In this document: piece by piece, positions 17,006 to 32,784 of the stretch
How positions within the stretch are numbered: position 1 is the first letter of the stretch
How the letters are laid out: each line of letters opens with the position of its first letter
Origin: Promethearchaeota archaeon
GTDB lineage: Archaea; Asgardarchaeota; Lokiarchaeia; Sigyniarchaeales; SOKP01
NCBI GenBank assembly: GCA_019058365.1
Contig: JAHPZE010000021.1
Span: forward strand, 12,100-76,099
Direction of reading: 5' to 3'
Length of the DNA stretch: 64,000 nucleotides
Notes under the pieces: model-generated
Databases searched by the model: none
What the model was told of the DNA's origin: nothing
What the model saw: the letters and a program-made list of their open reading frames with translations, nothing else
Position numbers and translations under genes: made by a program

Positions 17006-18145
17006 TTATTTTATAGAACTTATATTTTTCACTACTTGTGTTCTAAAAAATTCTTTATTATGTGTTTTCAAATGTCGATTTCTTAAGATTTGAGCATTCT
17101 TGCAATACTTATCATAATTATGAGCAATTTCAATAATCTTTTCAGCTATTATTTTTGGATCTGAAAAGTCTTCTAAAACAAGTTCAGTATAGGGATTAAA
17201 TAATGATTTTATATTTCCCGCCTTATTTGTTAAAATGACTTTCCCCTTAATAATTCCCTCAAGCATTTTAATAGGAACTGTTGAGGGACATATATTATTA
17301 ACCATCGGAAGAATTAACACATGCTCAGTATCGATTATTTTTGAGACCATTTGGTGTGGTTGAGATCCTAAAAATTGAAAATTATCATTAAGATTAAGAT
17401 TGTTTACTTTATTTTGAATTTCCGCTCTAGTAGGACCATCCCCTACTAATTTTATTATGATTGGAAATCCCTTATCTTTTAATATTTTAGCAGCATCTAT
17501 TAACGGAGCAAGTTTATCATACTTATGAAATCTTCCCGTATAACCAACTATTAAAGGTTTGCCATCATTGAAATTATAGGTTAACTCTCTTGTTGTTAAA
17601 AAATAATTCTGAACATAATAAGGTGCAATTACTATTTTTAAAGAATCCCCTCCATACTTTGCAACAATCTTTTCTGCTTGTTTATTCTCAACAAAGATAA
17701 GATCAGCGCTATGAACAAGAAATTTCTCAAATTGAAATTCTAATTTCAGTAAAATTTTAGTTAGAACGCTAAACTTAGGTTTGTAAGAGGGATTTTTATA
17801 AAAAGCACTTCTTTCAATAGTGGAAAATGGAGTACATCCCATATTGAGGATAAATTTGTGTTTCATTACTTTTTTTAAAAAAATAGGAATAAATCCTGGG
17901 CGAGTAGCTCTTATAACAAATACTTGATGCGGTTTTAGTGATAACTTTACTAGTTTCAGAATCATTTTTAAAGAATTCAAAAAACTCAGTGAACTATCTT
18001 CATTTCTATTTGGAAACACCTTAATAATATTGAAACTTGAGGGAATTGAGATAATAAATTTGTTATCATTAATACAACCCCCATAAGAAAGATCGCTCAA
18101 ATTTGAATGAGTACAGTAATAAATATTTTGTGCTCTATCTTTCAT
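17006..18145 (-). CDS. Glycosyltransferase family 4
   Basis: YTGRF, LVGDGP, FLGSQPH, PIKMLEG in a GT-B C-terminal domain. Confidence 0.85.
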   Translation of the reverse strand: MKDRAQNIYYCTHSNLSDLSYGGCINDNKFIISIPSSFNIIKVFPNRNEDSSLSFLNSLKMILKLVKLSLKPHQVFVIRATRPGFIPIFLKKVMKHKFILNMGCTPFSTIERSAFYKNPSYKPKFSVLTKILLKLEFQFEKFLVHSADLIFVENKQAEKIVAKYGGDSLKIVIAPYYVQNYFLTTRELTYNFNDGKPLIVGYTGRFHKYDKLAPLIDAAKILKDKGFPIIIKLVGDGPTRAEIQNKVNNLNLNDNFQFLGSQPHQMVSKIIDTEHVLILPMVNNICPSTVPIKMLEGIIKGKVILTNKAGNIKSLFNPYTELVLEDFSDPKIIAEKIIEIAHNYDKYCKNAQILRNRHLKTHNKEFFRTQVVKNISSIK

Positions 18146-18496
18146 AACTCCTTCCTAAAAAATTTTATACAGATTCAGTCTCATTTTTAAGGATATAAAT
18201 TATAACATTGGTTTAAATAAAAAAATTTGTAAAAGTCTTAAAAACCCTACGTTTTAAAGTAAAAGGTTAAATTTTTGAATTTTCTTTATGATTTAAATTT
18301 TAAACTGATATATTTAATTAATTTGACGCAACCATTCCATTATTTGAATAATTTCAGAGTTTTGAATTAATTAGGTGTGAATACAAAAATAGAATTTGTT
18401 TTTAACTTTAATAAATTTAGGGAAAATTAACCAAAAACCATTGAGTCAGGTAGATGAAATTTGAGATAATAATTAAGAATTTAAAATCCTTTAATA

Positions 18497-19177
18497 CTAC
18501 TTTATTTTTCTTATTGCGAAACTTAATTTTCTATCAGTTTCATGGGTTAAATAAATAAATTCCCAATCAAATTTTATACAAAATTGGTTTACAGCTTTTA
18601 CCACGCCATATGCTAGTGCTTTATTAATATTTCCTTGACAATAATCATGACCCGCTATTATTCCACCATCTTTTACTTTCATTCGACATAATTCCAGCTC
18701 TTTTATTGTTTGCTTGTAAGAATGTGTTGTATCGATATATACCCAGTCAAAATAACCATTCTCAAATTTCTTTAATTCTTTCTCGGATGTACCTCTTATT
18801 ATAATAACTCTTCCAGCATCTATTTCTTTTTGAAATCTTTTTCTAACATAATGCATTTTATTCTTATCAAATCTTTCTGAATCCCATATATCTATCAAAT
18901 ATAGCTTTTTTGGATGTGTCAAAGAAATAATTTTATTTGAAAAATCTCCTTTATCAACGCCTAGTTCGGTAATAATACCATTTTTTGGGAGAAATTTTAA
19001 CAATATCTCTCTATTAAGGACTACTTTGAGATCTTTAATATTTTTTTGATTTAATCTTACTTGGTTTTCAAAATTTGTATCAGAAATAACTTTACTTCTA
19101 CGTATTATTATATTAAATCCAAACAAGTGTACTACTTTTTGGATAATAGAATAGCTTTTTTTAAGTACTTTTAACAT
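18497..19177 (-). CDS. Class I SAM-dependent methyltransferase (Methyltransf_24-like)
   Basis: ELGVDKGDFS, YLIDIW, FDWVYIDTTHSY, GGIIAGHDY. Confidence 0.88.
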   Translation of the reverse strand: MLKVLKKSYSIIQKVVHLFGFNIIIRRSKVISDTNFENQVRLNQKNIKDLKVVLNREILLKFLPKNGIITELGVDKGDFSNKIISLTHPKKLYLIDIWDSERFDKNKMHYVRKRFQKEIDAGRVIIIRGTSEKELKKFENGYFDWVYIDTTHSYKQTIKELELCRMKVKDGGIIAGHDYCQGNINKALAYGVVKAVNQFCIKFDWEFIYLTHETDRKLSFAIRKIK

Positions 19178-19309
19178 AATTATTTTATTTATTTTTTTGG
19201 TTTAAATTTAACTAATTTTTCCTCTCTCATTCCTGTCTTCTATGAGATTAAACCAAAGTTTTATTGACAATATCAATTAGAGATAGAAAATTTTAGCTTT
19301 TTAAGTAAC

Positions 19310-20821
19310 TCAAGTGTTTAATGTTTGTTTTTTTTTAAAAAATCGGTTAATGAATTCAATAAGAAATTCTCTCCTAAATATCAATATCAAGCAAAAATAT
19401 GCAATAATTCCTATTGAAATATGATAAAATGATTGAAATAAATATGATGAAGTCCAGTAAACCATACCTCCTAATAGACTTATAAATAAAGCAGAAACAC
19501 TAAATAATAGAAATATTCCAAAAGATTTTATATATTCTGTAAAACAAGGCCCTAATACCTTCTTTATTAAAAAATGGTAGAAAAAGTAAAAGAGGAGGAA
19601 GTTAGAAAGTAAAAAAGAAAATGCTACCCCATTAATTCCCCCAAAATAAATCCCAAGTAATATTATAAAAGGCTGAATTATTGCTACGAGTGCATTCCAT
19701 AAGAATCCCAACCTTGCATATCCTTTTGCAAGTAAAAGAGAACCTATTGGATTACCGATGCATCTAAATAAACCTACCACTGAAAGAATTTGTACTAAAA
19801 GTATCGAAGGATTCCATTGTAAGCCATACAATAAAGGAACAAAGTAGGGTGCAATCAAGATTAACAAGATGTATATCGGAAAGTTGATGGAACTAACGAT
19901 ACTTATCAGATTAAAATATTTTTCTTTCAGCATTTTTGTATTATTTTGCATTTTAGAAAAGTATGGAAAGGATACCCGGGTAAAAATTGGGTTAATTAAG
20001 GTAATCGGATATAAAACAAGATTATATGCAATAGTGTAATAACCTAAAGAAACAGTTCCCAAAAACTTCCCAATTAAAATTTTATCAATATTAGAGTTAA
20101 ATAAATTTAAAGAACGTTCACCCATTTGATATAAACCAAACGATAAAAAATTGTTAATTTCTGAAAAATTGAATTCAAATGTTGGTTTCCAGATTTTTAA
20201 TCCAATAAATAACAACAGAGAAGATTTCACTATACTTCTTAATATATATCCTAATACGACTGACATGACACCCCAACCATAATATGCTAATATTATTGAA
20301 ATTACAACTAAAAGTGTTGAAGTTATAAGTTCAATTATTGCAATAGATTTAAATACCAGCTCTTTCCTTAGCAAAGTCTCAAATTGTTGACCTACTGGAA
20401 TGATGAGAAATATTATTGCGGTTATTCTTATGAGAGATGTTAATTCGGGTTTATTATAAAAAATGGAGATTAATGGTGATAATAAATTAAGAATCAAGAA
20501 TATTAAAAAACCGATTATAAATGTTATCCAAAATAATGTAGATATTTGTCGTTTAGATACATTCTGATAATGTATTACCGCCCCAGAAACACCAACATCC
20601 GAATATGCAATTCCGAATCCAAGAACAATTAAAATCAACCCCATAATACCATATTCTTCAGGTGTGAATAATCGGGCAAGAATTATCATCATAATAAATT
20701 GAATCATTGCGGAATATGTTAGTGAGATTGAATTCCATCGAATTCCTGCATCAGCTATGTGATCCATCATTTTAAAATCAATATCTTCACCCTTATCGAG
20801 AACATTTTTATCATCATTCAT
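19310..20821 (-). CDS. MOP-family oligosaccharide flippase (WzxC-like)
   Basis: LARLFTPEEYG, IDKILIGKFLG...LGYYTIAY, FPYFSKMQ; many TM segments. Confidence 0.9.
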   Translation of the reverse strand: MNDDKNVLDKGEDIDFKMMDHIADAGIRWNSISLTYSAMIQFIMMIILARLFTPEEYGIMGLILIVLGFGIAYSDVGVSGAVIHYQNVSKRQISTLFWITFIIGFLIFLILNLLSPLISIFYNKPELTSLIRITAIIFLIIPVGQQFETLLRKELVFKSIAIIELITSTLLVVISIILAYYGWGVMSVVLGYILRSIVKSSLLLFIGLKIWKPTFEFNFSEINNFLSFGLYQMGERSLNLFNSNIDKILIGKFLGTVSLGYYTIAYNLVLYPITLINPIFTRVSFPYFSKMQNNTKMLKEKYFNLISIVSSINFPIYILLILIAPYFVPLLYGLQWNPSILLVQILSVVGLFRCIGNPIGSLLLAKGYARLGFLWNALVAIIQPFIILLGIYFGGINGVAFSFLLSNFLLFYFFYHFLIKKVLGPCFTEYIKSFGIFLLFSVSALFISLLGGMVYWTSSYLFQSFYHISIGIIAYFCLILIFRREFLIEFINRFFKKKQTLNT

Positions 20822-21005
20822 AAAATCAACACTTGGGATGAAATGAATATAAAACGAAGGTAAGTTAGTTTTTAAACTTTACATAAAACTTAAAATTTAA
20901 TCGTTAAATACCTAAATAAATTTATTTAATTAAAGTTATTGATATAAAATTTTCAAGGAAAAAGGTTTATTTAGTATATTTCGCAAAATACAATAGGTAA
21001 TATAA

Positions 21006-22013
21006 ATGGGGAAAGAAAAAATTTTATTATTCCATAAAGTTAATAGAAGTTTTATAGAAAAAGATTATCAAATCTTAAGCGAGAAATATAATATTAAAAA
21101 AATAATGATTAATTTTAAAAATATTAAAAATTCTTTAAATTTAATAAAAGCCTTTATTTATATTTTTAATTATTCAATAGTATTTTTCTGGTTTGCTAGC
21201 CCAATTTTCCTTCCCTTTGTAATTCTTTCTAAGATATTGGGTAAGAAAAGGATTGTTGTAGCAGGAGGCTACGATGTAGCTTATGCTAAATATAAAACAT
21301 ATAAATATGGATTGAGAAATCGACTTTTTCAGAAATATATAGTATCCTTAATTTTAAACAATTCAACAGCCGTATTTCCAGTTTCAAATTATACTAAAAA
21401 GGAAGTGTTGAGTTTTTCTAAACCAAAAAACATTAAAACAATATATAACGGGATAAATATAGAGAATTTTAACAAAATTAAAGGAATAGAAAAAGAAAAT
21501 ATAGTTATAACCGTTGCCTCAGATATAGGAAACCAATATTATAAAAAAGGTTTAGGAACTTTTGTAGATATTGCTAAAAAAATGCCAAAAACTAAATTTT
21601 TCCTAATTGGTAAATGTAATACAAAACATAAACTTGTCAAAAGAATATTAAAAAGTAAACCTAAGAATTTAACTCTATTAGATTTTATAAATCAAGATGT
21701 TTTAATAAAATTATATTCAAAAGCAAAAGTTTATGCACAATTATCTCTTCATGAAAGTTTCGGGTTAGCTTTAGCTGAGGCGATGTTATGTGAGTGTGTT
21801 CCAGTAATCGCAAACACAAGTGCATTGCCTGAAGTTGTAGGTAAAGTGGGGTATACTATAAAATATAACGATGTAGAGGAGTCTATTAAAAAGATTACTG
21901 AGGCATTGAATTCTTCAAAAGAGCGTCAAAAACAAGCAAGAGAGAGAATAATCAAAAACTTCTCTTTAACAAGGAGGAAACAAGAAATATTGAGGTTCAT
22001 AAACAATTTATGA
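21006..22013 (+). CDS. Glycosyltransferase family 4
   Basis: KKGL, ESFGLALAEAMLCECVPV (EX7E). Confidence 0.9.
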   Translation: MGKEKILLFHKVNRSFIEKDYQILSEKYNIKKIMINFKNIKNSLNLIKAFIYIFNYSIVFFWFASPIFLPFVILSKILGKKRIVVAGGYDVAYAKYKTYKYGLRNRLFQKYIVSLILNNSTAVFPVSNYTKKEVLSFSKPKNIKTIYNGINIENFNKIKGIEKENIVITVASDIGNQYYKKGLGTFVDIAKKMPKTKFFLIGKCNTKHKLVKRILKSKPKNLTLLDFINQDVLIKLYSKAKVYAQLSLHESFGLALAEAMLCECVPVIANTSALPEVVGKVGYTIKYNDVEESIKKITEALNSSKERQKQARERIIKNFSLTRRKQEILRFINNL

Positions 22014-22198
22014 GATAAAAGAGATATAAAGCCGCTAAAAAGATTCTCAAAAGTTATAATAAAATCGATTTTTATGGTATAGCTCCATCAAACCCTTATT
22101 TAAAGTACTCAAAAATTAATTTCACAAAAACCTCAATTTGGACAATTATAAAGATATAACAGAAAAAAGGGTCTCAATTTTTTAATTAATATATATTA

Positions 22199-23035
22199 TC
22201 ATTTAAAAAAAATCCTTTTGATCTTCTTAAACAAATATAATATTATACATAGAGAGAGCATAGGAATTAATTTTCTTAAGATTATATATGAAGATCCGAA
22301 TTCACGCGATGCTAAATTAATCGGAACTTCCTCAATTTTATAACCAAGTAAAGCAGCTTGTAATATTAATTCTGTTGTAAATGCATATCCATTAAATCTA
22401 ATATTTTCAAAGATTTTTTCAGTCTTTCTACGAAGTGCTCTAAAACCACATTGATTATTTTTTACTTTTTGTCCAAAAAAAAGAAGTATTATTACTTCCA
22501 ATAATGCTTCTCCGAGCCTTGTAGCTATAGGTAATTTATAATTGAAGGTTCCTTTATATCTCGATCCAATAGTGATATCAGCATCTCCATTAAAAATAGG
22601 TTTTAATAAATTTATTATATCTTCTGCTCTATGCTGGCCATCTGAATCCATTGTGATTAAAATGTCCCCTTTACTATGGCGAATACCCGTAAGAAGCGCT
22701 TTTCCATATCCCTGATTAAATTTATGCTCTACAATATGAATTCCTTCATTATGCTTAATCTTTTTCATCTCATTTAAACTTGAATCTGTGGAATGATCAT
22801 CAACTACAATTACTTCAATCAATTCACATTTTGGGAGATTTTCTAATACATATTTAATAGTATTTTCTTCATTATAAACAGGGAGAATAATAGAAATAAA
22901 CATTTGATTGTTTTCATTTTTATATTTTTTTAAATAGTCGTAAAGTAATTTAAAGTTATCATTTTTTCTCGAGTTCTTCTTATCTCGACTTTCCAATAAG
23001 GAGCTTTTTTCTATGTCTAAGGATGGAGTTGTCAA
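22199..23035 (-). CDS. GT2, DPM1-like polyprenol-phosphate glycosyltransferase
   Basis: ILPVYNE, VDDHSTD, NQGYG, MDSDGQH, IGSRY, GFRA. Confidence 0.9.
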   Translation of the reverse strand: MTTPSLDIEKSSLLESRDKKNSRKNDNFKLLYDYLKKYKNENNQMFISIILPVYNEENTIKYVLENLPKCELIEVIVVDDHSTDSSLNEMKKIKHNEGIHIVEHKFNQGYGKALLTGIRHSKGDILITMDSDGQHRAEDIINLLKPIFNGDADITIGSRYKGTFNYKLPIATRLGEALLEVIILLFFGQKVKNNQCGFRALRRKTEKIFENIRFNGYAFTTELILQAALLGYKIEEVPINLASREFGSSYIILRKLIPMLSLCIILYLFKKIKRIFFK

Positions 23036-23275
23036 AATATTTGCTATTTTTGAAGAGTTGCAATTTTCAATATTTCGATATTAATATTAATTTGATTATA
23101 TTTAATTTTAATTTTTTGGATTCATAGAAACCTAGAAAACAAAAAATAATTTAAGATTTTTCTTAAAAAGCCTCAAGTTTCATTAATCTACTCCAGGAAT
23201 AAATTCAAAATACCAAAGTATTAATTTTATAATTCCACATTTAAAATTAGATGTAGTAATTTTGGTGATATAATT

Positions 23276-24418
23276 ATAAACATCGTATTTGTGGCTCCAT
23301 TTTTTAATGAAAAACCAAATAGAAAATCAAGCTTAATTTTATTGGTTAAAGAATTATCAAAATACGTTGATATAACTATTATATCATCAAAAGTCGAAGG
23401 AACTAAGAGTAAAGAAATTTTAAACTCTAATTTACGAATTTATAGGTTTACACCGACAATTTATTTACCAAAATTACCTTATACCTTTGATTTTTTATTA
23501 ATTAAAAAAATCATCAAAATTTTAAAAAAACAGAAAATTGATATAATAATTGGATATAGCCTCCAATTTTTTTCATGCTTTTCAGCAGCAATAGTAGCTA
23601 AGATACTCAGAATTCCTTTTATTTGCCGAATAGTAGGAGCAAGTAGTACTACTAATAAGAATGGGATCGAAATTCTCTCAAAATTATATGATAAAACTTT
23701 TGCAAAAATAACGTTAAAACTAGCCAATAAAATATTAGTACAAACTAAAAGTATGATCTCTAGACCCCTAAAATTAAGAGCACCTCTTCAAAAAATTTCT
23801 ATTGTTGAGGATGGAATTGATTTTGCACGATTTTCTGGAATTACTGACACAGAAGCGCTTAGAAAAAGATTGAAAATACAAAAATCGGAAATTGTTATCA
23901 CATTTATTAGCAGAATTTTTGAATTAAAGGGTATTGAGGATTTAATAGTTGTTTCAAAACAAATCTTGAATGAGTATGAAAATGTAGTTTTTCTTATTGC
24001 TGGAAAAGGATCTTTAGAAAAAAAATTAGAGAATGAGGCTAAAATGACAAAAAATCTTGTTTACTTAGGATTTAGAAAGGATGTTCCTAATCTTCTAGCT
24101 ATTAGTGACATATATGTATTACCTTCCTATAGTGAAGGTTTATCTCCAGCAATATTAGAAGCTATGGCAAGTGGTTTACCGGTTGTTACAACAAACGTAG
24201 GTTCAAATCCGGATATCAATATAAATGGAAAGTATGGGAATTTAATAAATCCCGGTGATCAATCTCAGCTAAAAAAAAATATTATCAATCTTATTCAAAA
24301 TGAATCATTACGAAAAGAAATGGGTATTTTAAATAAAAAAAATATCCAAGAAAATTTTGATTTGAAAATAACAACCTTAAAATTCTTAGGAGAAATTAAA
24401 AAGCTTCTTGTAATTTAA
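23276..24418 (+). CDS. Glycosyltransferase family 4 (candidate sulfoquinovosyltransferase)
   Basis: ISRIFELKG, LPSYSEGLSPAILEAMASG. ORF track start is GTG 23291; probable start is ATA 23276 (INIVFVAPFF), 7 nt after GGTGA. Confidence 0.88.
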   Translation: MNIVFVAPFFNEKPNRKSSLILLVKELSKYVDITIISSKVEGTKSKEILNSNLRIYRFTPTIYLPKLPYTFDFLLIKKIIKILKKQKIDIIIGYSLQFFSCFSAAIVAKILRIPFICRIVGASSTTNKNGIEILSKLYDKTFAKITLKLANKILVQTKSMISRPLKLRAPLQKISIVEDGIDFARFSGITDTEALRKRLKIQKSEIVITFISRIFELKGIEDLIVVSKQILNEYENVVFLIAGKGSLEKKLENEAKMTKNLVYLGFRKDVPNLLAISDIYVLPSYSEGLSPAILEAMASGLPVVTTNVGSNPDININGKYGNLINPGDQSQLKKNIINLIQNESLRKEMGILNKKNIQENFDLKITTLKFLGEIKKLLVI

Positions 24419-24435
24419 AAAACTCTATTATTTAG

Positions 24436-25707
24436 TTGCCTGAACAGATAAAAATGAAGAATCGAAATGTTATTTTGGGAATTGATGGAATACCTTTTGA
24501 ATTAATGAGATCACTATCAGATAAAGGTGTTATGCCAAATTTTAAAGAGCTAAAGAATTCATATTATTTTAAAGAGATGAAATCATCGATACCCCATATA
24601 TCATCTGTTTCATGGAGTTCAATTATAACTGGAACAAATCCTGGAGAACATGGAATTTTTGGATTCTCCGAATTAATACCAGGGACATATAGTCTTAGCT
24701 ATCCAAATTTTAATGCTCTAAAAAGTAAAGCCTTTTGGCATCAAGAAAGTGAAAAAAGACATATCATCATTAATGTTCCGGCAACTTATCCAGCAAAAAT
24801 TCTTAACGGTATCCATATAGCTGGATTTGTAGCATTGGATTTAGAAAAAGCAGTATACCCAAAAACATGTATTCCTAGTCTAAAAAAATTAGAATATGTC
24901 ATTGACATTGATTCAAGTCTAGCTCATAAACAGTCTAAAGATATTTTATTCGATGAGCTTATGAGAGTTTTAGAAATAAGAAAAAAGACTTATCAATTCT
25001 TTTGGAATAAACTTAATTGGAATAATTTTATGGTTGTAATTACAAGTTCAGACAGATTTGGACATTTCTTATGGAATACATATGCAAATACTGATAATAA
25101 ATTACATTCGAGAGCTTTACAATTCTTTCAAAAAATAGATGATTTTATCGGCGATATTAAAGATAAATTAAAAGAAAATGATAATTTTATTATATTATCT
25201 GATCATGGAATGGAAGAAACAAAACAAAACATGAATTTAAATACGTACCTAGAACAAGAAGGTTTTCTTAAACTTTCTGATAAACATAAAAATTATAACC
25301 GCATCGCAAAAGGCACAAAAGCTTTTGTATTAGATCCAGGACGAGTTTATCTTAATAAAAAAGGGCGTTATCCTAACGGTTCAATATCTAACTTAGAAGA
25401 AAAAGACATAATTGAAGAACTAAAAAAGATATTTTATGATTTAAAATATCAAAACCAAAGAGTAATTAGAACAATTCATGAAAAGAATGATATATATAGT
25501 GGAGTTAATATTGATAAAGCACCTGATTTAGTAGTTTTAGAAAACTCCGGATTTTGTCCAAAAGGCGGAATTGGAAAAAATGTCATTTTTGAACAAGATA
25601 ATCTATCTGGAATGCATAATGATAGTGCTTTTCTTTTTATTAATAAAGAAATTAATTTAGAATTACCAAAAGTTCAAGATGTAGTAGGTTTATTAGGAGG
25701 AAATTAA
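24436..25707 (+). CDS. Alkaline phosphatase superfamily, nucleotide pyrophosphatase/phosphodiesterase-like (likely start ATG 24454)
   Basis: ILGIDG, PHISSVSWSSIITGTNPGEHGIFGF, DRFGH, SDHG, GMH metal-binding motifs. Confidence 0.88.
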   Translation: MPEQIKMKNRNVILGIDGIPFELMRSLSDKGVMPNFKELKNSYYFKEMKSSIPHISSVSWSSIITGTNPGEHGIFGFSELIPGTYSLSYPNFNALKSKAFWHQESEKRHIIINVPATYPAKILNGIHIAGFVALDLEKAVYPKTCIPSLKKLEYVIDIDSSLAHKQSKDILFDELMRVLEIRKKTYQFFWNKLNWNNFMVVITSSDRFGHFLWNTYANTDNKLHSRALQFFQKIDDFIGDIKDKLKENDNFIILSDHGMEETKQNMNLNTYLEQEGFLKLSDKHKNYNRIAKGTKAFVLDPGRVYLNKKGRYPNGSISNLEEKDIIEELKKIFYDLKYQNQRVIRTIHEKNDIYSGVNIDKAPDLVVLENSGFCPKGGIGKNVIFEQDNLSGMHNDSAFLFINKEINLELPKVQDVVGLLGGN

Positions 25708-25708
25708 A

Positions 25709-27226
25709 ATGGATAACATACATAATTCCGATAAAACTTGTTGGAATTGCCCCGCAGCTAAATTAATGGGAAACATTGATTTTAGAGCTTGTGGTCAAGC
25801 ACGTGAATTTAAAAGTGGTTCAGATGAGGAAGGAGAGATTGTAATAGAATGTCGGAGGCGACCTGAATTAGGATATTTTGAACCAAATATCACATTTGAG
25901 CAATGTCCAGAGTGGATTGCTTCTGAATATGGATATCTTCTAAAAAATATGAAAGTAATGATTCTAGGAATTGATGGGTATTTAGGATGGACCTTGGCAT
26001 TAAAATTAGGAAAATTGGGATTTCAAATCAGCGGTCTTGATAATTACACTCGCCGTGATTGTGTAATGGAAAAGGGTGCACATACAATTATACCTATAGA
26101 GAGAATGACACAACGATTAAAACTGGCGAGTGATATTTTTGGAATAAATATTAATTTCCGAAAAATTGATTTGCTTGACGCACCGAAGGTCAGAGAATTT
26201 TTAGAAGAAGTTAAACCAGAAGCTATAGTTCATTATGGTGAAATTCCAAGTGCTCCATACAGTATGGCTGATTCTGAACATGCTGTTAGGGTACAAGAAA
26301 ACAATGTAATAGGAACTTTGAAACTTTTGTGGATCATAAAAGATGTTATACCAGAGACTTGCCTAATTAAATTAGGGACCATGGGTGAGTATGGTTCCCC
26401 TTTAACTGGAAGACCTCTCTTTGAAGGCTTATTCCCTGCAGATGCTATTATTAAATGGGACGAACGTGAATGGAGTTTGGGGGGAGAGACAACACCCAGA
26501 GATCCAGTTAGTTTTTATCATGCAAGTAAGGTTCAAGATACCTTTAATGTATTAGAAGCCTGTAAATATTGGTGGTTACGTTCATATGATGTTATGCAAG
26601 GTGTTATTTATGGGGTTTATACAGAAGAATTGGTTGTAGACAAGAGACTAAGGACGAGATATGATATAGATGAGTGGTTTGGTACAGTTATAAATAGATT
26701 TGTGGCACAAGCAGTAGCAGGAATACCATTGACAATTTATGGGCAAGGTGAACAAATAAGAGGATTTATAGCGCTAAATGATGCGATGCAATGCATGATT
26801 AGATTAATAGTTTCTCCACCGGAACCAGGACAATATGATGTAGTTAATCAAGTTTCTGGATTATACAAAATAAACGACTTAGCAGAAGCTGTTGCTAAAA
26901 TCGGTAATACAAAATTTAACTTGAATGTAACGATACAAAGAATTGAAAATCCTAGAGTAGAAGCAGACAATCATCCACTGGAAGTAGTTTCTAGAAAATT
27001 ACCTCGTTTTTTTGGATTTACCCCTCAAATACATTTAGAAGAAGAAATTGAGAGAATGATTGAAGTTTTACTAGAAGAAGAAATAAAAAATCGGATTGAT
27101 TTGAAAAAACATACAATTTTACCTGTGACTACGTGGCAAGGAGAAAAGAGAAAAATGCAAGAGTTAGAAAAGTACGAACCCGGGACAAAAGAATCTAAAG
27201 GTTATAAACCAATATTTGACACATAA
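25709..27226 (+). CDS. sqdB: UDP-sulfoquinovose synthase (SqdB/SQD1/Agl3 family) with an 80-aa Cys-rich N-terminal extension
   Basis: From M81: GIDGYLGW, SAPYSM, NNVIGTL, KLGTMGEYG, SFYHASKV, QGVIYG, FGTVINRF, PLTIYG.GEQ.RGF, NPRVE, all matching SQD1/SqdB signatures. Confidence 0.9.
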   Translation: MDNIHNSDKTCWNCPAAKLMGNIDFRACGQAREFKSGSDEEGEIVIECRRRPELGYFEPNITFEQCPEWIASEYGYLLKNMKVMILGIDGYLGWTLALKLGKLGFQISGLDNYTRRDCVMEKGAHTIIPIERMTQRLKLASDIFGININFRKIDLLDAPKVREFLEEVKPEAIVHYGEIPSAPYSMADSEHAVRVQENNVIGTLKLLWIIKDVIPETCLIKLGTMGEYGSPLTGRPLFEGLFPADAIIKWDEREWSLGGETTPRDPVSFYHASKVQDTFNVLEACKYWWLRSYDVMQGVIYGVYTEELVVDKRLRTRYDIDEWFGTVINRFVAQAVAGIPLTIYGQGEQIRGFIALNDAMQCMIRLIVSPPEPGQYDVVNQVSGLYKINDLAEAVAKIGNTKFNLNVTIQRIENPRVEADNHPLEVVSRKLPRFFGFTPQIHLEEEIERMIEVLLEEEIKNRIDLKKHTILPVTTWQGEKRKMQELEKYEPGTKESKGYKPIFDT

Positions 27227-27228
27227 TT

Positions 27229-27543
27229 ATGGAAGTTACAGATAAAAGTTTCGAACAAGAAATCATTAAATCAGAAATCCCCGTATTAATCGAATTTTGG
27301 GCATCTTGGTGCGTCCCCTGCAAAGCAGTGGAATATTTGTTAAAAGAATTGGATAAAGAATACGATGGAAAAATTAAGATTGCCAAATTAAATATCGATA
27401 GACAGAGAAATACTCCAAAAAAATATGGATTAACAGGCGTTCCGACATTTGCTACCTTTTTAGACGGTGAAATTAAAGAAATGATTGTAGGAGCTCAGAC
27501 GAAACAAAATTTAACTAAAATGATTGACAATGTACTGAGATAA
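27229..27543 (+). CDS. trxA: Thioredoxin
   Basis: FWASWCVPCK, GVPT; 104 aa. Confidence 0.93.
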   Translation: MEVTDKSFEQEIIKSEIPVLIEFWASWCVPCKAVEYLLKELDKEYDGKIKIAKLNIDRQRNTPKKYGLTGVPTFATFLDGEIKEMIVGAQTKQNLTKMIDNVLR

Positions 27544-27794
27544 CCAAAGTCTTTATAAAAGACAAATCCAGTTTTACATGTCCGTTTTAAGTGAAATCAT
27601 CTTTAACAAAACAATTTTTTTTGATATAATAAAGAATTTCAATTTTTTACAATAATGGAAAGACCTACTTCTCGTCTCTAAGACCATTAGATTTTTATAT
27701 GTGAAAATAATCATTTACAATAATTAAAAAAGACGAAAAAAATATAAGGAAATGTAATAATTAATAAGATTAGATCATTAAAAGTAACTTTACC

Positions 27795-29474
27795 ATGAGA
27801 GCGAACCAACTTAATTTTAAAGAAAGTATATGGAGAACTGTTAAGCTTAATTCAGATAATGATATATTTGAAAGTGAAAAATCTAGTACTCCTTTAATCT
27901 CCGTGATAATACCCATATTTAATGAAGAAAAGACAATCAGAAATGTCATTGAAAGAATACCCAATCATCAACGGTATGAAATTATTTTAGTAGATGACGG
28001 TTCAACTGATAATAGCTTAAAAAAAATTCTAGAGATTAATAACCGCGAGATTAAGATAATCAAACATGAAAATAATCAAGGGTATGGAGCTGCGGTTTTA
28101 TCTGGTTTTAAGCATGCTGCTGGCGATATCATAGTCACAATGGATTCAGATGGACAACATAATCCTGAAGAAATCTCTGCTTTAATTAAACCAATTTTTA
28201 GTGATAAAGCCGATATAACAGTTGGATCAAGATACTTGGGTAATGCCAATTATAAAATCCCTCTTTATATACGTATAGGAGAGTATTTTGTTAGGATCTG
28301 CTTAAGATCATTGTATAGGCAAAGAGTTTATAATAATCAAAGTGGATTTAGAGCATTTAATTATTCAAGCTTAAATATATTTAAGAAGATGAAACAAACC
28401 ACATTTGGATTTTGCACTGAAACACTATTCGAAGCTGCTTACAATAGATTAAGAATTTCTGAAGTTCCAGTTAATATGAATGGTAGAAAATATGGAAATT
28501 CAAATATAAATTTATTTAAGGTTCTTATATCAATTTCTTCTTGTGTTCTAAATTATTTGTTGAAAAGATTCAAACTAACCAGATTTTTTTCAAACCGAAT
28601 TATAATGCACCTTCCATTATTGGAGCAAGATAGTTTAAATAACCAAAATATATTAGATGGCCACTTTTACAAACGCAATATACATGATAATATTATCAGT
28701 TTGAAAGATAATTATATCTATCCAAATTTGAAAATAGGAATCGTTATTCCTGCTTTTAATGAAGAATTAAATTTGGATAAAGTCCTCTCAAAAATACCTA
28801 AAAATTTATCTAATAAATTAGAATTAATAGTTGTAGATGACGGATCAACTGATAATACTCAAGGAATAGCCCTTACTCATAAATCAATTGTTTTATGTCA
28901 TAATAAAAATAAAGGTTATGGAGCTGCGGTCAAAACTGGATTGAAATATTGCAAGAATAAAAAGTATGATATTACAATAATTCTTGATGGAGATGGTCAA
29001 CATAATCCAAAATGTTTATCTCAATTTATAGATTCTATTATATTAGAAAACTTTGATTTTGCTATTGGAAATCGATATTATTTTCCTTATAAAATGAAAG
29101 TATCTAAAAAATTATGTTCAAAAATTATTAGCGCAATTTATTTGATTTTTTTCTCCAAAAGGATACATGATCCAACAAATGGATATAGAGCATTGTCATA
29201 TAAAACTTTGAAGGATTTAAACTTAGAATCAAATTATTCAATATCTCAAGAAATGTTATTAAAATTAGTACCAGAGTATAGTTTTAAAGAAATTCCAGTT
29301 AAAATAGACCAAAGAAAAAACGGTCATTCATTTGTAAAATTAAGACAATACTTTATCAAGATGTTCCTTATTGTTTTAAAATATTATGTATTCCCAAAAG
29401 TGAGAAAAATTTCTAGAAAAATCTTTAGTGAAGAAACAAGAAAAATAGTCGGTGTACACATCTTAAAGACTTAG
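27795..29474 (+). CDS. Tandem double GT2 protein (two DPM1-like domains)
   Basis: Two copies of IP.FNEE...VDDGSTD...N.GYG...(M/L)D.DGQH...G.RY. Confidence 0.9.
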   Translation: MRANQLNFKESIWRTVKLNSDNDIFESEKSSTPLISVIIPIFNEEKTIRNVIERIPNHQRYEIILVDDGSTDNSLKKILEINNREIKIIKHENNQGYGAAVLSGFKHAAGDIIVTMDSDGQHNPEEISALIKPIFSDKADITVGSRYLGNANYKIPLYIRIGEYFVRICLRSLYRQRVYNNQSGFRAFNYSSLNIFKKMKQTTFGFCTETLFEAAYNRLRISEVPVNMNGRKYGNSNINLFKVLISISSCVLNYLLKRFKLTRFFSNRIIMHLPLLEQDSLNNQNILDGHFYKRNIHDNIISLKDNYIYPNLKIGIVIPAFNEELNLDKVLSKIPKNLSNKLELIVVDDGSTDNTQGIALTHKSIVLCHNKNKGYGAAVKTGLKYCKNKKYDITIILDGDGQHNPKCLSQFIDSIILENFDFAIGNRYYFPYKMKVSKKLCSKIISAIYLIFFSKRIHDPTNGYRALSYKTLKDLNLESNYSISQEMLLKLVPEYSFKEIPVKIDQRKNGHSFVKLRQYFIKMFLIVLKYYVFPKVRKISRKIFSEETRKIVGVHILKT

Positions 29475-29521
29475 AATTTTAAAGATATAAAGATTTTAAT
29501 AAAGAAACTAAAAATTTCAAT

Positions 29522-30787
29522 TTATTTTAACACGTTTACTTTTTCTAAATTTCTTATATAAAATATAATGAAAGTAAATATTATTGTTAAAGAATGTACA
29601 AGAACTGTACTATAAAACACTCCAATAAACCCAAATAAATTTATGAATAAAAAATCTAGCCCTACATTAAAGACACCACCAATTGCAGTCAAATAAAACG
29701 TTAATTTTCCAAAACCCGTAGGAACTACAAAAGCTTGTATTAATATGACACCAAAAATCTTAAAAGGTATGAGGTATAGTAGAACATTCCAAATTATTAG
29801 AATATTTTCATTATAGTATTCAGGAAATAAAATAGTTATTATAAATGGGAAAAAAAAAACCGATAAAAAGCTAATAATAAATCCCAGTATAAATATATAG
29901 GGCAGTTTGTTTAAATATTTTTTTATTAATGCAAATCTCTTTTTTGTAGCCATTTGGGTAATACTGGGAGCTAATATCTGTCCCAAAATAATAAATGGTA
30001 CAAAAATGAAATTAAAAATGCTATTAACTATTCTATAATAACTAATTTCAATAATAAAACCATAAGATTCTAAAATTAAAATATCTATATTAGTATATAA
30101 AAAATATGCCAAATTGGCAAAACCTATTACAAATGCGTAATTTAAAACTTTTTTTGCTAATTTTTTATCAAAAATATAATTTTTCTCATGTATAGATTTA
30201 AATAATAAAATGAATAAAGTTAAATAGTAAATACCATGAAAGCTTAAAGCACCAATTATATCAAATAAAGTTATTAAAAAAAATGAAATTGGTAAAACAA
30301 TTATACCACTTGAAATTGATATAAATGACAATTTTTTAAAATTTTTTAATCCTCTATAAATACCATCAAATACATTAACTAAACTTATTAAAAAGATAAG
30401 CGGGATGAAAATAAGAATAAACTCAAAAATTTTCGTAAAAAAAAGTATGCTTAATAAATATAAAACAACTGATACTGCAGATGAAAATATGATGCACAAT
30501 ATAAATGTTGAAAATATAATATCTTTAACCTTTTGAGGGGAAATAGTTTCATACTCTACGATGAATCTGCTAACAGAAGCACTAAGCCCAAATTCTCCAA
30601 AGATTATAAAAATTCCAATTACTGCCATTAAATAACTATAATCCCCAAATTGTATCGGAGTTAATAATCTAGCAACAATATAAAGAATTATAAATTCTAA
30701 TCCCATTTTTCCAAATGTTTGAATTGATCTCCATAGATAATTTTCTCCATGATTTTTATATATCTTAAATAAATTGATTTTTACCAT
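29522..30787 (-). CDS. Wzx-type oligosaccharide flippase
   Basis: ARLLTPIQFGDYS, EFGLSASVSRF, YTNIDILIL; about 12 TM. Confidence 0.88.
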   Translation of the reverse strand: MVKINLFKIYKNHGENYLWRSIQTFGKMGLEFIILYIVARLLTPIQFGDYSYLMAVIGIFIIFGEFGLSASVSRFIVEYETISPQKVKDIIFSTFILCIIFSSAVSVVLYLLSILFFTKIFEFILIFIPLIFLISLVNVFDGIYRGLKNFKKLSFISISSGIIVLPISFFLITLFDIIGALSFHGIYYLTLFILLFKSIHEKNYIFDKKLAKKVLNYAFVIGFANLAYFLYTNIDILILESYGFIIEISYYRIVNSIFNFIFVPFIILGQILAPSITQMATKKRFALIKKYLNKLPYIFILGFIISFLSVFFFPFIITILFPEYYNENILIIWNVLLYLIPFKIFGVILIQAFVVPTGFGKLTFYLTAIGGVFNVGLDFLFINLFGFIGVFYSTVLVHSLTIIFTFIIFYIRNLEKVNVLK

Positions 30788-31060
30788 TTTTTATTTTCAA
30801 TTAAAATCTTGTTAAATCTTTAAAATACAAATATTATACATTGTTAGTATAAATTTTTTTCATCTTTTTTATTTTGACTTTTTTTTCTCTGCTTGTTTTT
30901 AAGAAACATGTCATAATAAAAAAAGATACAAAAGAAATTATATTTATTAAATAATTATGTTTATTAAATAGATTTAAAATGAGATTTTACATTTTAAATC
31001 TATGAAAAAAATTTTCATAATTATAAAAATAGGTTTAACTCCTTTATTTAAGTAAATATA

Positions 31061-31972
31061 ATGAGCAGAAAAAAAGATTTATTTTCTTTTTCGATTTTAA
31101 TGGCAAGTTATAATAATGCAAAATACATAGAAACTGCCATAAAAAGTGTTATTTCACAAACTTATGAGAATTGGGAATTAATTATCGTAGATGATTGTTC
31201 ACCAGATAATTCAAATGAAATAATAACTAATTATCTAAATGATAAAAGAATTAAGCTTATACACCATAATTGTAATCAAGGGTACGGGGGCGCTTTAAAA
31301 ACAGCAATAAATAATTCTAAAAATGAAATTATTGGAATACTTGATGCAGATGATAAATTACATAAAAAAGCTTTAGAAATAATTGTAAATATTTATATTG
31401 ATTCTCCTAATTATGGATTTATTTATAGTACGATGTGGAAGTGCGACTCCAATTTAACTAATTGTAAAATTGATAAAGATATTAAAGAAATTATTCCAGC
31501 AAAGACTTTTATTTTTCATCCATATATTTCCCATTTTAAAACATTTAGAAAAAAAGACTATGATAAAACCCTAGGCTTTGAAATTACACAAAAAAGAAGT
31601 GTAGATAAGGATATTATATATAAACTCGAAGAAGTTACAAGGTTTAAATTCGTAAATATTCCTCTATATTACTATAGACAACATGATCAAGGAATCTCTC
31701 AAGGAAATAATGCAAATAAAGCAAAAGGATATGAATATATCGCAAAATATAAAACCTATATCAGAAGAATGAATAAAAGTATTCCTAATTATAAGAAAAA
31801 TGAGATAATTTTAGAATATTTCAAAATTACTTTTCACCCAATTATAAGAACTTTTATTAAATTCATACAAATGCTAAAAATTAAAAAATTAATCATTGTA
31901 TTACTTGATAGATTTCCAAATGTATCAAGAAAGAATTCCTTTTTAATTGCTATTCAAAAATTAATTAACTAA
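31061..31972 (+). CDS. Glycosyltransferase family 2
   Basis: SILMASYN, IIVDDCSPD, LDADD, PLYYYRQH. Confidence 0.9.
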   Translation: MSRKKDLFSFSILMASYNNAKYIETAIKSVISQTYENWELIIVDDCSPDNSNEIITNYLNDKRIKLIHHNCNQGYGGALKTAINNSKNEIIGILDADDKLHKKALEIIVNIYIDSPNYGFIYSTMWKCDSNLTNCKIDKDIKEIIPAKTFIFHPYISHFKTFRKKDYDKTLGFEITQKRSVDKDIIYKLEEVTRFKFVNIPLYYYRQHDQGISQGNNANKAKGYEYIAKYKTYIRRMNKSIPNYKKNEIILEYFKITFHPIIRTFIKFIQMLKIKKLIIVLLDRFPNVSRKNSFLIAIQKLIN

Positions 31973-31998
31973 ATTTTAAATAAATTTAAATTAGAATT

Positions 31999-32784
31999 TT
32001 ATCTTTTAATCTCCAAATTAAGATTCTCATTCTCTTTAATTCTTCTAAAAATAGCGACAATATGTAGACACTTCGATTCATCTGTATAAAAATAGTTCCT
32101 TTTAATTAATGAAAATAATTTCTTTTTAAGAAAACTAAAACCTAATAGATCTAAAATCAGATAAAATTTTTTTAATAAATTACTTATGAATGTTTCATTG
32201 TATAAAAAAAAGAAATTTTGTATTTTGAAATACTTTTTAAAAAGCTCTATTAATTCGTGTTTATTATAATGTCGATAATGTTTTGGTTGAATTTTTAGAT
32301 TTTTTGAAGGAACTGAAACAAATAATAATCCTTTTATGGATATTAATTCACTGATTTTATGTATTAACTCATTTAAGTCTTGATCCGAAAAATGTTCAAT
32401 AACTTCCATTAGGATTCCTATATCAAAACTCTTACTTTTAAAATTTAGAATATTCTCGACGAAAAATCTTGATTTTTCATATTCATTAAAAGCTTCTGCA
32501 AAAGAAATCGCTTTTTTGTCTTTATCAATACCAATGATTCTTTTAATATTATTGTAAAATTGTTGATTTCTACAAAGTTCATGAATTAATTTCCCATCCC
32601 CACATCCGATATCAATTATAGACCCTGGTCGCAGTTTAAAAATTCTGTTTTTAATTAAATCTAAATAAGTGAAATATTCAAATCCGTAAGAAAAATTTTT
32701 AAAATTTAAATAATCATTTTTTATTTCTATCAAATAATGATAAGGAAATGAATACTGATCTTCTTGAATTTTATCTTTGTTCAT
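31999..32784 (-). CDS. Class I SAM-dependent methyltransferase
   Basis: IIDIGCGDG, GIDKD, EVIEH, VSVP...HYRHY. Confidence 0.9.
   Translation of the reverse strand: MNKDKIQEDQYSFPYHYLIEIKNDYLNFKNFSYGFEYFTYLDLIKNRIFKLRPGSIIDIGCGDGKLIHELCRNQQFYNNIKRIIGIDKDKKAISFAEAFNEYEKSRFFVENILNFKSKSFDIGILMEVIEHFSDQDLNELIHKISELISIKGLLFVSVPSKNLKIQPKHYRHYNKHELIELFKKYFKIQNFFFLYNETFISNLLKKFYLILDLLGFSFLKKKLFSLIKRNYFYTDESKCLHIVAIFRRIKENENLNLEIKR

Follow-up and report, generated by a model that had tools for sequence, protein, structure and literature searches.

A conserved cassette of a long-form SQD1-type synthase, an AlkP-family metalloenzyme and thioredoxin: a candidate route from activated sulfate to UDP-sulfoquinovose

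Introduction

Sulfoquinovose is a major organosulfur compound, and the chemistry of UDP-sulfoquinovose synthesis, which consists of oxidation, dehydration and the addition of sulfite, has been established for the enzymes SQD1 and Agl3. The thioredoxin-dependent reductases of adenosine 5′-phosphosulfate (APS) and 3′-phosphoadenosine 5′-phosphosulfate (PAPS) carry out a two-electron reduction. Ferredoxin-glutamate synthase has been suggested as the partner that delivers sulfite to plant SQD1. To our knowledge, no described sqd or agl locus has thioredoxin and AlkP partners. According to Zolghadr et al. (2015, PMC4388408), the way in which sulfite is transferred to SQD1-type enzymes in vivo is unknown, and a complex of plant SQD1 with ferredoxin-glutamate synthase is also cited in that paper. 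In this study, we analyzed a stretch of 64,000 nucleotides from the genome of a Promethearchaeota archaeon (contig JAHPZE010000021.1, positions 12,100 to 76,099; hereafter, the window), in which the gene of an SQD1/SqdB/Agl3-type synthase lies between the gene of an AlkP/NPP-family enzyme and a thioredoxin gene. An earlier note on this DNA had joined these genes with that of a GT4 glycosyltransferase into a four-gene candidate sulfoquinovosylation operon of Asgard archaea. We find that the conserved unit consists of three genes, that it is shared with many other archaea and with bacteria, and that its synthase belongs to a discrete long-form clade.

Our observations concern the genes present and their linkage, sequence conservation, the catalytic residues and the gene inventories of whole genomes; what the cassette makes, which sulfur donor it uses and how the AlkP protein, the cysteine domain and thioredoxin contribute are inferred. 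Judged by this comparative evidence, we put at roughly an even chance the reading that the cassette makes UDP-sulfoquinovose and generates the sulfite for it from APS or PAPS, with thioredoxin as the reductant.

Conservation of the cassette

A scan of species-representative genomes recovered a long-form relative of the synthase in 245 genomes from many archaeal and bacterial phyla, and 80 of the loci were fetched for comparison. Thioredoxin was linked to the synthase in all 71 loci with room for it: the gene lies directly downstream in 69 loci and overlaps the synthase stop in the other two. In 62 of 69 loci, the gene immediately before that of the synthase encodes AlkP; in two more, the AlkP gene follows just downstream, and three of four genomes without an adjacent AlkP gene encode an orthologue elsewhere. 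Because the order AlkP-synthase-thioredoxin recurs in nearly all of 79 independent loci, this adjacency is far beyond chance. Moreover, the cassette genes overlap or are separated by gaps of 1-4 nt in several mapped loci, as they are in the window. The conserved unit is composed of three genes (AlkP, long synthase and thioredoxin) and not of four.

The earlier note had made its proposal depend on whether thioredoxin and AlkP genes are linked to sqdB in other genomes, and this linkage holds in essentially every genome that we examined. For the short form of sqdB, three loci from other Asgard genomes were inspected, and no thioredoxin or AlkP gene lies near any of them. The thioredoxin itself passes the TIGR01068 cut-off (98.8 bits vs. 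96.8). At least 90% of 73 orthologues retain each cysteine of its WCxxC motif, with WCVPS found in two of the 73.

The distribution of the cassette is patchy. The long form occurs in 6 of 201 sampled Asgard genomes and in none of the 13 sampled genomes of the same genus, and the bacterial orthologues are approximately 65-71% identical to the Asgard synthase. In addition, the G+C content of the cassette region (0.29-0.33) is higher than that of its flanks (0.21-0.26). Because of the patchy presence in Asgard archaea, the high bacterial identity and the raised G+C content, the comparison points to a mobile three-gene cassette that has spread horizontally as a unit. The description as an Asgard system was thus too narrow, since the cassette is also found in bacteria. 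Judging by the record titles, the hosts are mostly lineages of anoxic sediments. Flippases, TrmB regulators, sulfatases (7 loci) and the pair CysD and CysN (7-9 loci) are recurrent neighbors of the cassette, and the identity of CysD and CysN was confirmed for locus L017. At another locus, a gene for a TauE/SafE-family anion permease (L058:14318-15142:+) stands between cysD and cysN beside the cassette; its product may serve to take up sulfate or to export sulfite.

The long-form synthase

The whole synthase reading frame (25709-27226, + strand) encodes 505 rather than approximately 390 amino acids, with matches to the Pfam families Epimerase and GDP_Man_Dehyd. Arabidopsis SQD1 aligns to residues 81-477 (E 1e-77), and an AlphaFold model of the synthase, with a predicted local distance difference test score (pLDDT) of 94 and a predicted template modeling score (pTM) of 0.93, superposes on the SQD1 structure 1qrr with a template modeling (TM) score of 0.95. 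The glycines of the GxxGxxG site for NAD (G87, G90 and G93) are invariant, as is expected of an extended short-chain dehydrogenase/reductase (SDR). The two SqdB motifs to which the earlier note had drawn attention are intact in the translation, GTMGEYG at 223-229 and YHASK at 270-274. Ten residues are common to the long-form and the canonical enzymes: T224, M225, E227, Y228, S268, Y270, H271, K274, Q297 and R330. The first eight are conserved throughout 110 sequences of the long form and also predominate at the same positions among 83 canonical enzymes, where Y228, Y270, H271 and K274 are each present in at least 79 of the 83. The Thr/Tyr/Lys triad, the His after the Tyr and the MGEY motif are among the residues examined by mutation in Agl3 (PMC4388408). 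The enzyme thus resembles plant SQD1 (1qrr, 1i24), bacterial SqdB and Agl3 of Sulfolobus acidocaldarius in its extended-SDR fold, its triad, the following His and the MGEY motif, and on these grounds UDP-sulfoquinovose, formed from UDP-glucose and sulfite, is most likely its product.

Compared with these relatives, the cassette enzyme has an additional N-terminal head, a loop insert at approximately residues 235-258, a C-terminal extension of 28 amino acids and, close to the active site, R235 and Y293. It is, furthermore, always encoded together with thioredoxin and nearly always with AlkP. The synthase scores 406.4 bits on the NCBIfam model NF041015, which is under the equivalog cut-off of 575. 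The long-form clade is discrete and very tight, with 846 bits inside and approximately 300 bits for the canonical enzymes outside; its members are 62-96% identical across archaea and bacteria, and the synthase is 37-46% identical to the canonical enzymes. In the homologue searches, all canonical homologues begin to align at residue 81 of the synthase.

One apparent difference was considered and rejected. The replacement of the SQD1/Agl3 residue Arg101 (EQRSAP to EIPSAP) might have indicated an altered active site; however, Pro is the majority residue at this position in the 83 canonical enzymes, and the difference was dismissed because Pro is thus also the commonest residue there in canonical SqdB. 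As a separate observation, the SqdB homologues P0116 (845 aa) and P0141 (731 aa) carry an insertion of approximately 340 amino acids with a LAGLIDADG-like domain that looks like an intein. Such insertions occur in both long-form and canonical homologues; in the long form, the insertion lies at or just before GTMGEYG (after approximately residue 222), and in the canonical form the break is found further on.

The head domain comprises the first 80 amino acids of the synthase. Its five cysteines (C11, C14, C28, C48 and C66) and ten other residues do not vary among 68 sequences. Pfam gave no match to the head even at an E value of 10, and none was found in the ESM Atlas, in the Protein Data Bank (PDB) by profile search, or by Foldseek. 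A VIA-align search with a model of the head (pLDDT 74) returned only the high-potential iron-sulfur protein (HiPIP) 1isu (Z 2.3; 42 residues, root-mean-square deviation 2.3) and the iron-sulfur subunit 2y8n_B (Z 2.1), both of which are small [4Fe-4S] proteins, and this result is a lead rather than a classification. In HiPIPs, the [4Fe-4S] cluster is bound by four Cys ligands with the spacing C-x2-C-x(12-16)-C-x(12-14)-C. The spacing in the head, C-x2-C-x13-C-x19-C plus a fifth Cys, resembles this pattern, which is again only a lead. The head domain is unclassified and may bind a metal or an iron-sulfur cluster. In 49 genomes, it was found on no other protein and is confined there to the long synthase. 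The five-cysteine head, which is absent from the account given in the earlier note, is the feature that defines the long-form clade.

A cysteine-rich domain together with thioredoxin would be typical of a sulfur relay. This pairing, the loop insert with R235 and Y293 that the clade has near the active site, and the mostly anoxic sediments of the hosts are consistent with a sulfur donor other than sulfite (thiosulfate, sulfide or a persulfide on a protein, for example), for which the cysteine head would serve as the carrier and thioredoxin as the resolving reductant; the product would be sulfoquinovose made by another route or a 6-thio sugar. However, all residues that the sulfite-using enzymes have in common are kept, the YH pair included, and such a donor would leave unexplained both the strict AlkP partner and the association of the cassette with two unrelated ATP sulfurylases that is described below. 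We consider this alternative improbable.

The AlkP-family partner

The cassette AlkP protein matches PF01663 with 131.7 bits, compared with a gathering threshold of 23. The residues D17, S56, D206, H210, D256, H257 and H394, which are the ligands of the two metals and the nucleophile, each recur in 95% or more of 65 orthologues, among which no Cys is conserved. The protein thus shares all binuclear-metal ligands and the Ser/Thr nucleophile with the NPP/phosphonoacetate hydrolase branch of PF01663. However, the solved NPP and PhnA structures are only distantly related to it (profile E about 1e-7), and the nearest relatives that we identified belong to an uncharacterized clade whose genes lie among those of ATP sulfurylase or are fused with them.

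A member of this clade is encoded in the same genome. A sulfate-activation operon on contig C50 (L093:7206-10343, - strand) encodes, in this order, the ATP sulfurylase Sat, a PF01663 protein of 462 amino acids and APS kinase. The 462-aa protein is a paralogue of the cassette AlkP (25% identity over the full length, E 2e-32), and it shares 46% identity with the AlkP part of Sat-AlkP fusion proteins of approximately 860 amino acids, which were first met in an Anaerolineae genome, form more than 90 protein clusters and are common in Chloroflexota. Because the paralogue sits in ATP sulfurylase operons or is fused with the sulfurylase, the AlkP clade is tied to adenosine-phosphosulfate chemistry. 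No fusion of the cassette-type AlkP with other domains was found above 742 amino acids, which is weak evidence. A third form of the AlkP family was observed in DPANN-type loci, where PF01663 proteins of approximately 260 amino acids are encoded beside CysD and CysN (L017:14139-14927:+ and L021:12054-12827:+).

The candidate substrates of the PF01663 protein are APS, PAPS, 3′-phosphoadenosine 5′-phosphate (PAP), pyrophosphate (PPi) and UDP-sugars. The genome also encodes a soluble pyrophosphatase, two membrane pyrophosphatases and two proteins of the inositol-monophosphatase family. With these standard enzymes present, AlkP is less likely to be the pyrophosphatase or the PAP phosphatase of the cell, and a simple clean-up of PPi or PAP is a less compelling role for it.

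The AlkP protein might also put a sulfate ester on the sugar or glycan, acting as a sulfuryl transferase that depends on APS or PAPS or in the manner of a sulfatase, in which case the product would be a doubly modified or a different sulfated nucleotide sugar. The AlkP paralogue has weak similarity to the Sulfatase family, and sulfatase genes lie near the cassette in the 7 loci mentioned above. In sulfatases, however, formylglycine is formed from a Cys, and the cassette AlkP has a Ser/Thr nucleophile and no conserved Cys from which formylglycine could be made. Furthermore, the addition of a sulfate ester would leave no role for thioredoxin or the cysteine head, and we regard it as very improbable.

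Sulfur supply in the host genomes

The source genome (4.74 Mb, 100% complete by markers) encodes Sat and the APS kinase CysC. It has no PF01507 domain, no sulfite reductase of the NIR_SIR type and no AprA, and hence no CysH. The same genes were tallied in 50 cassette genomes. Two of these, G019 (locus L027) and G021 (locus L030), are unpublished; each tally includes both, as do the loci adjacent to CysDN, and no claim hangs on them alone.

An ATP sulfurylase, either Sat or the CysD type, was found in 49 of the 50 genomes. Sat is present in 36, in one of them only as a fragment, and 13 of the 14 genomes that lack it encode a CysD-sized PF01507 protein. The CysD-sized proteins were confirmed by a model in one case and by cluster membership in nine loci, four of which are in genomes with Sat or outside the 50; the rest were assigned by size only. 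APS kinase was found in 34 of the 50 genomes; of the 14 without Sat, a single one yielded it. Because APS kinase was not found in the small genomes of the CysDN type, APS itself would be the donor there. The next steps of sulfate reduction are rarely represented: sulfite reductase (NIR_SIR) in 3 of the 50 genomes and a short, bona fide CysH likewise in 3, with a strong PF01507 match wholly absent from 21. Within 15 kb of the cassette, 16 of the 50 genomes carry a gene for an ATP sulfurylase, which may belong to either of the two unrelated types. The suggestion made in the earlier note of a dedicated module for sulfite supply or redox control thus gains comparative support, as judged from gene content, in that ATP sulfurylase is nearly universal among the hosts and sulfite reductase and CysH were mostly not found.

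In this survey, we also observed proteins of 580-680 amino acids that combine a PUA domain, PAPS_reduct and a 4Fe-4S ferredoxin domain (PRK13795, annotated as 'hypothetical protein'). Two examples, L084:1553-3319:- and L085:1365-3380:-, come from a Thermoplasmata and a Borrarchaeum cassette genome, and they could be unrecognized PAPS reductases or RNA-modifying enzymes.

These inventories bear on the simplest alternative, that an ordinary synthase uses free sulfite, with the cysteine head as a structural or regulatory metal site that is kept reduced or switched by thioredoxin, and with AlkP as an accessory hydrolase acting on PAP, AMP, PPi, a UDP-sugar or the product. The catalytic core is the same as that of the canonical enzymes, and the occurrence of the AlkP paralogue in Sat operons without the cassette fits a generic helper. 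Triple fusions of ATP sulfurylase, APS kinase and pyrophosphatase, which exist in some eukaryotes, are also in keeping with such a helper. However, a recognized source of sulfite is absent from the source genome and was not found in most cassette genomes. The source genome already has its own pyrophosphatases and proteins of the inositol-monophosphatase family, and the CysDN-only genomes without APS kinase would form no PAP that needs to be removed. Moreover, a purely regulatory thioredoxin would not ordinarily be linked in 71 of 71 loci. We therefore hold the use of free sulfite to be unlikely, while giving it more weight than the other alternatives.

Proposed mechanism

Because the synthesis of UDP-sulfoquinovose from sulfite is redox-neutral, a strictly linked and redox-active thioredoxin points to an additional two-electron step. 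The only two-electron step between activated sulfate and a sulfonate is that from S(VI) to S(IV), and for this reason the generation of sulfite in situ is favored. In the route that we propose, the Sat-CysC operon located elsewhere in the genome would supply APS or PAPS. The AlkP/NPP-like enzyme would bind the adenosine phosphosulfate and cleave or transfer its sulfuryl group to a cysteine thiol, which may be located on the five-cysteine domain or on thioredoxin, and the thioredoxin dithiol would then give the two electrons for the release of sulfite. AlkP, the cysteine head and thioredoxin would thus stand in for the missing CysH-type reductase and pass sulfite to the long-form synthase, in which UDP-glucose would be oxidized at C4 and dehydrated to the 4-keto-5,6-ene, and sulfite would be added at C6 to give UDP-sulfoquinovose. 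A GT2 glycosyltransferase of the AglJ-like type may move the sugar to a lipid carrier or a glycan, and the GT4 of the window and the neighboring glycosyltransferases may also join in the transfer.

The more specific proposal, that AlkP, the five-cysteine domain and thioredoxin form a new type of APS/PAPS reductase that is unrelated to CysH and feeds sulfite directly into the synthase, is tentative, and we put it somewhat short of an even chance. According to this proposal, the system would be analogous to CysH (PF01507) in its net reaction, in which activated sulfate and reduced thioredoxin yield sulfite, and in several of its parts, namely the thioredoxin partner and the reactive cysteines; the APS reductases also have an iron-sulfur cluster. 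However, no protein of the cassette, and none in the source genome, has a PAPS_reduct (PP-loop-like) domain, and the binding of the nucleotide would fall to an AlkP-fold metalloenzyme; the likeness is one of proposed function and not of family. A further parallel is offered by the association of plant SQD1 with ferredoxin-glutamate synthase, in which a synthase likewise needs a partner protein that delivers the donor, although the partners in the cassette are wholly different and are genetically fixed in one operon.

Several observations weigh against a cassette that reduces activated sulfate. AlkP-fold enzymes usually attack phosphorus, and such an attack on APS would yield sulfate rather than sulfite. 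The AlkP paralogue that adjoins Sat is also found in genomes of the same genus without the cassette, and the role of the AlkP clade may for this reason be a general one, for example, that of a by-product hydrolase, and not that of a sulfuryl-transfer enzyme. The structural hint of a metal in the cysteine head has a Z score of only 2.3. The complete Thermoplasmatales chromosome G032 (L055) has the synthase and thioredoxin and no AlkP orthologue anywhere; only a Sat fragment is found in it. Either the system is decaying there, or this chromosome offers a natural experiment on whether the cassette can do without AlkP. Most of the other cassette genomes are metagenome-assembled genomes of unstated completeness, which makes the absences recorded in them soft, and the PUA-PAPS_reduct-ferredoxin proteins, which occur in 12 of the 50 genomes, could be unrecognized reductases. 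Finally, all 6 cassette carriers among the Asgard genomes have Sat; however, Sat is present in 97 of the 201 Asgard genomes, and because it is common there anyway, its co-occurrence with the cassette inside Asgard is weak and non-discriminating evidence.

The locus in the window

The features of the locus are listed in Table 1. The open reading frame list contains four frames on the + strand (23291-24418, 24436-25707, 25709-27226 and 27229-27543), and together with the Pfam and NCBIfam matches it bears out the four co-oriented genes of the earlier note, with 1 nt between AlkP and the synthase and 2 nt between the synthase and thioredoxin. The start of the GT4 gene at 23276 that was given in that note is reasonable; it is unproven, as the codon there is non-canonical and the first GTG comes only at 23291. 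No stop interrupts the GT4 frame from 23225 onward, and the stretch before this GTG would encode a plausible first β-strand (IVFVAPFF). Because ATG, GTG and TTG are all absent between 23225 and the GTG at 23291, a near-cognate start codon (ATA or ATT, at approximately 23273-23278) is suggested. The AlkP gene probably starts at the ATG at 24454 rather than at the TTG at 24436. The cassette, placed here behind the GT4 gene, is housed in a surface-glycan island that extends over 17006-32784.

Table 1. Features of the cassette locus and the surrounding glycan island, in coordinates of the window.
Feature	Position	Strand	Evidence or remark
Wzx-type flippase genes	19310-20821 and 29522-30787		Glycan island around cassette
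Second GT4	21006-22013		Glycan island
GT2 glycosyltransferase, polyprenyl-phosphate-sugar synthase type (AglJ/PpgS/ArnC-like)	22199..23035	-	Pfam Glycos_transf_2 1.9e-31
GT4 glycosyltransferase, first gene of the local operon, outside the conserved cassette	23276..24418	+	Pfam Glycos_transf_1 1.2e-36 plus Glyco_transf_4
AlkP/NPP-family (PF01663) binuclear metalloenzyme, Ser nucleophile, cassette gene 1	24436..25707	+	Pfam 131.7 bits
Five-cysteine domain, N-terminal 80 aa of the synthase	25709..25948	+	C11, C14, C28, C48, C66
SQD1/SqdB/Agl3-type extended-SDR core (81-477) plus C-terminal extension (478-505), cassette gene 2	25949..27226	+	SQD1 match E 1e-77
Thioredoxin (WCVPC), cassette gene 3	27229..27543	+	TIGR01068 98.8 bits; Pfam Thioredoxin 94.4 bits
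Double-domain GT2	27795-29474		Glycan island
Further GT2	31061-31972		Glycan island

The GT4 gene falls outside the conserved unit. Its orthologues stand beside the cassette solely in L001-L003, which are the closest relatives, and the protein matches only generic GT4 models, all of them under the cut-off, and these scores do not point to SqdX or SQD2. Its membership in the conserved unit and an SqdX/SQD2-like role are not supported. A commoner fourth gene encodes a GT2 of the AglJ/PpgS/ArnC-like type, approximately 205-220 amino acids long, which directly follows trx in approximately 21 loci. The divergently oriented GT2 of the window (22199-23035) shares a BLAST cluster with these proteins and is 32% identical to the copy in locus L031. 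Its best NCBIfam matches are AglJ, PpgS and Dol-P-hexose transferase, all under the cut-off; on the AglJ model TIGR04182, it scores 95.4 bits compared with a cut-off of 325, and the resemblance is one of type only. This GT2 is a possible transferase for the sulfo-sugar.

Conclusions

As far as we can tell, the core of the synthase is an enzyme of a known kind, and the five-cysteine head, the fixed AlkP and thioredoxin partners and the CysH-independent sulfur route that they imply are undescribed; full-text searches of the literature returned no description of the cassette or of the Sat-AlkP fusions. The cassette is present in 245 species genomes from both prokaryotic domains, and its hosts activate sulfate, mostly without sulfite reductase and CysH. 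Its presence predicts sulfonated surface glycans or lipids in Asgard archaea, Thermoplasmatota, DPANN, Chloroflexota and other uncultured lineages, and it points to an uncharacterized AlkP-fold partner of ATP sulfurylase. The three proteins form a system that is suited to a direct test of CysH-independent reduction of activated sulfate. If the reading as a new reductase is true, many anaerobes could convert sulfate into a C-sulfonated sugar by a closed route in which no free sulfite occurs. This route would provide a possible answer to the question of the in vivo sulfur donor of SQD1-type enzymes.

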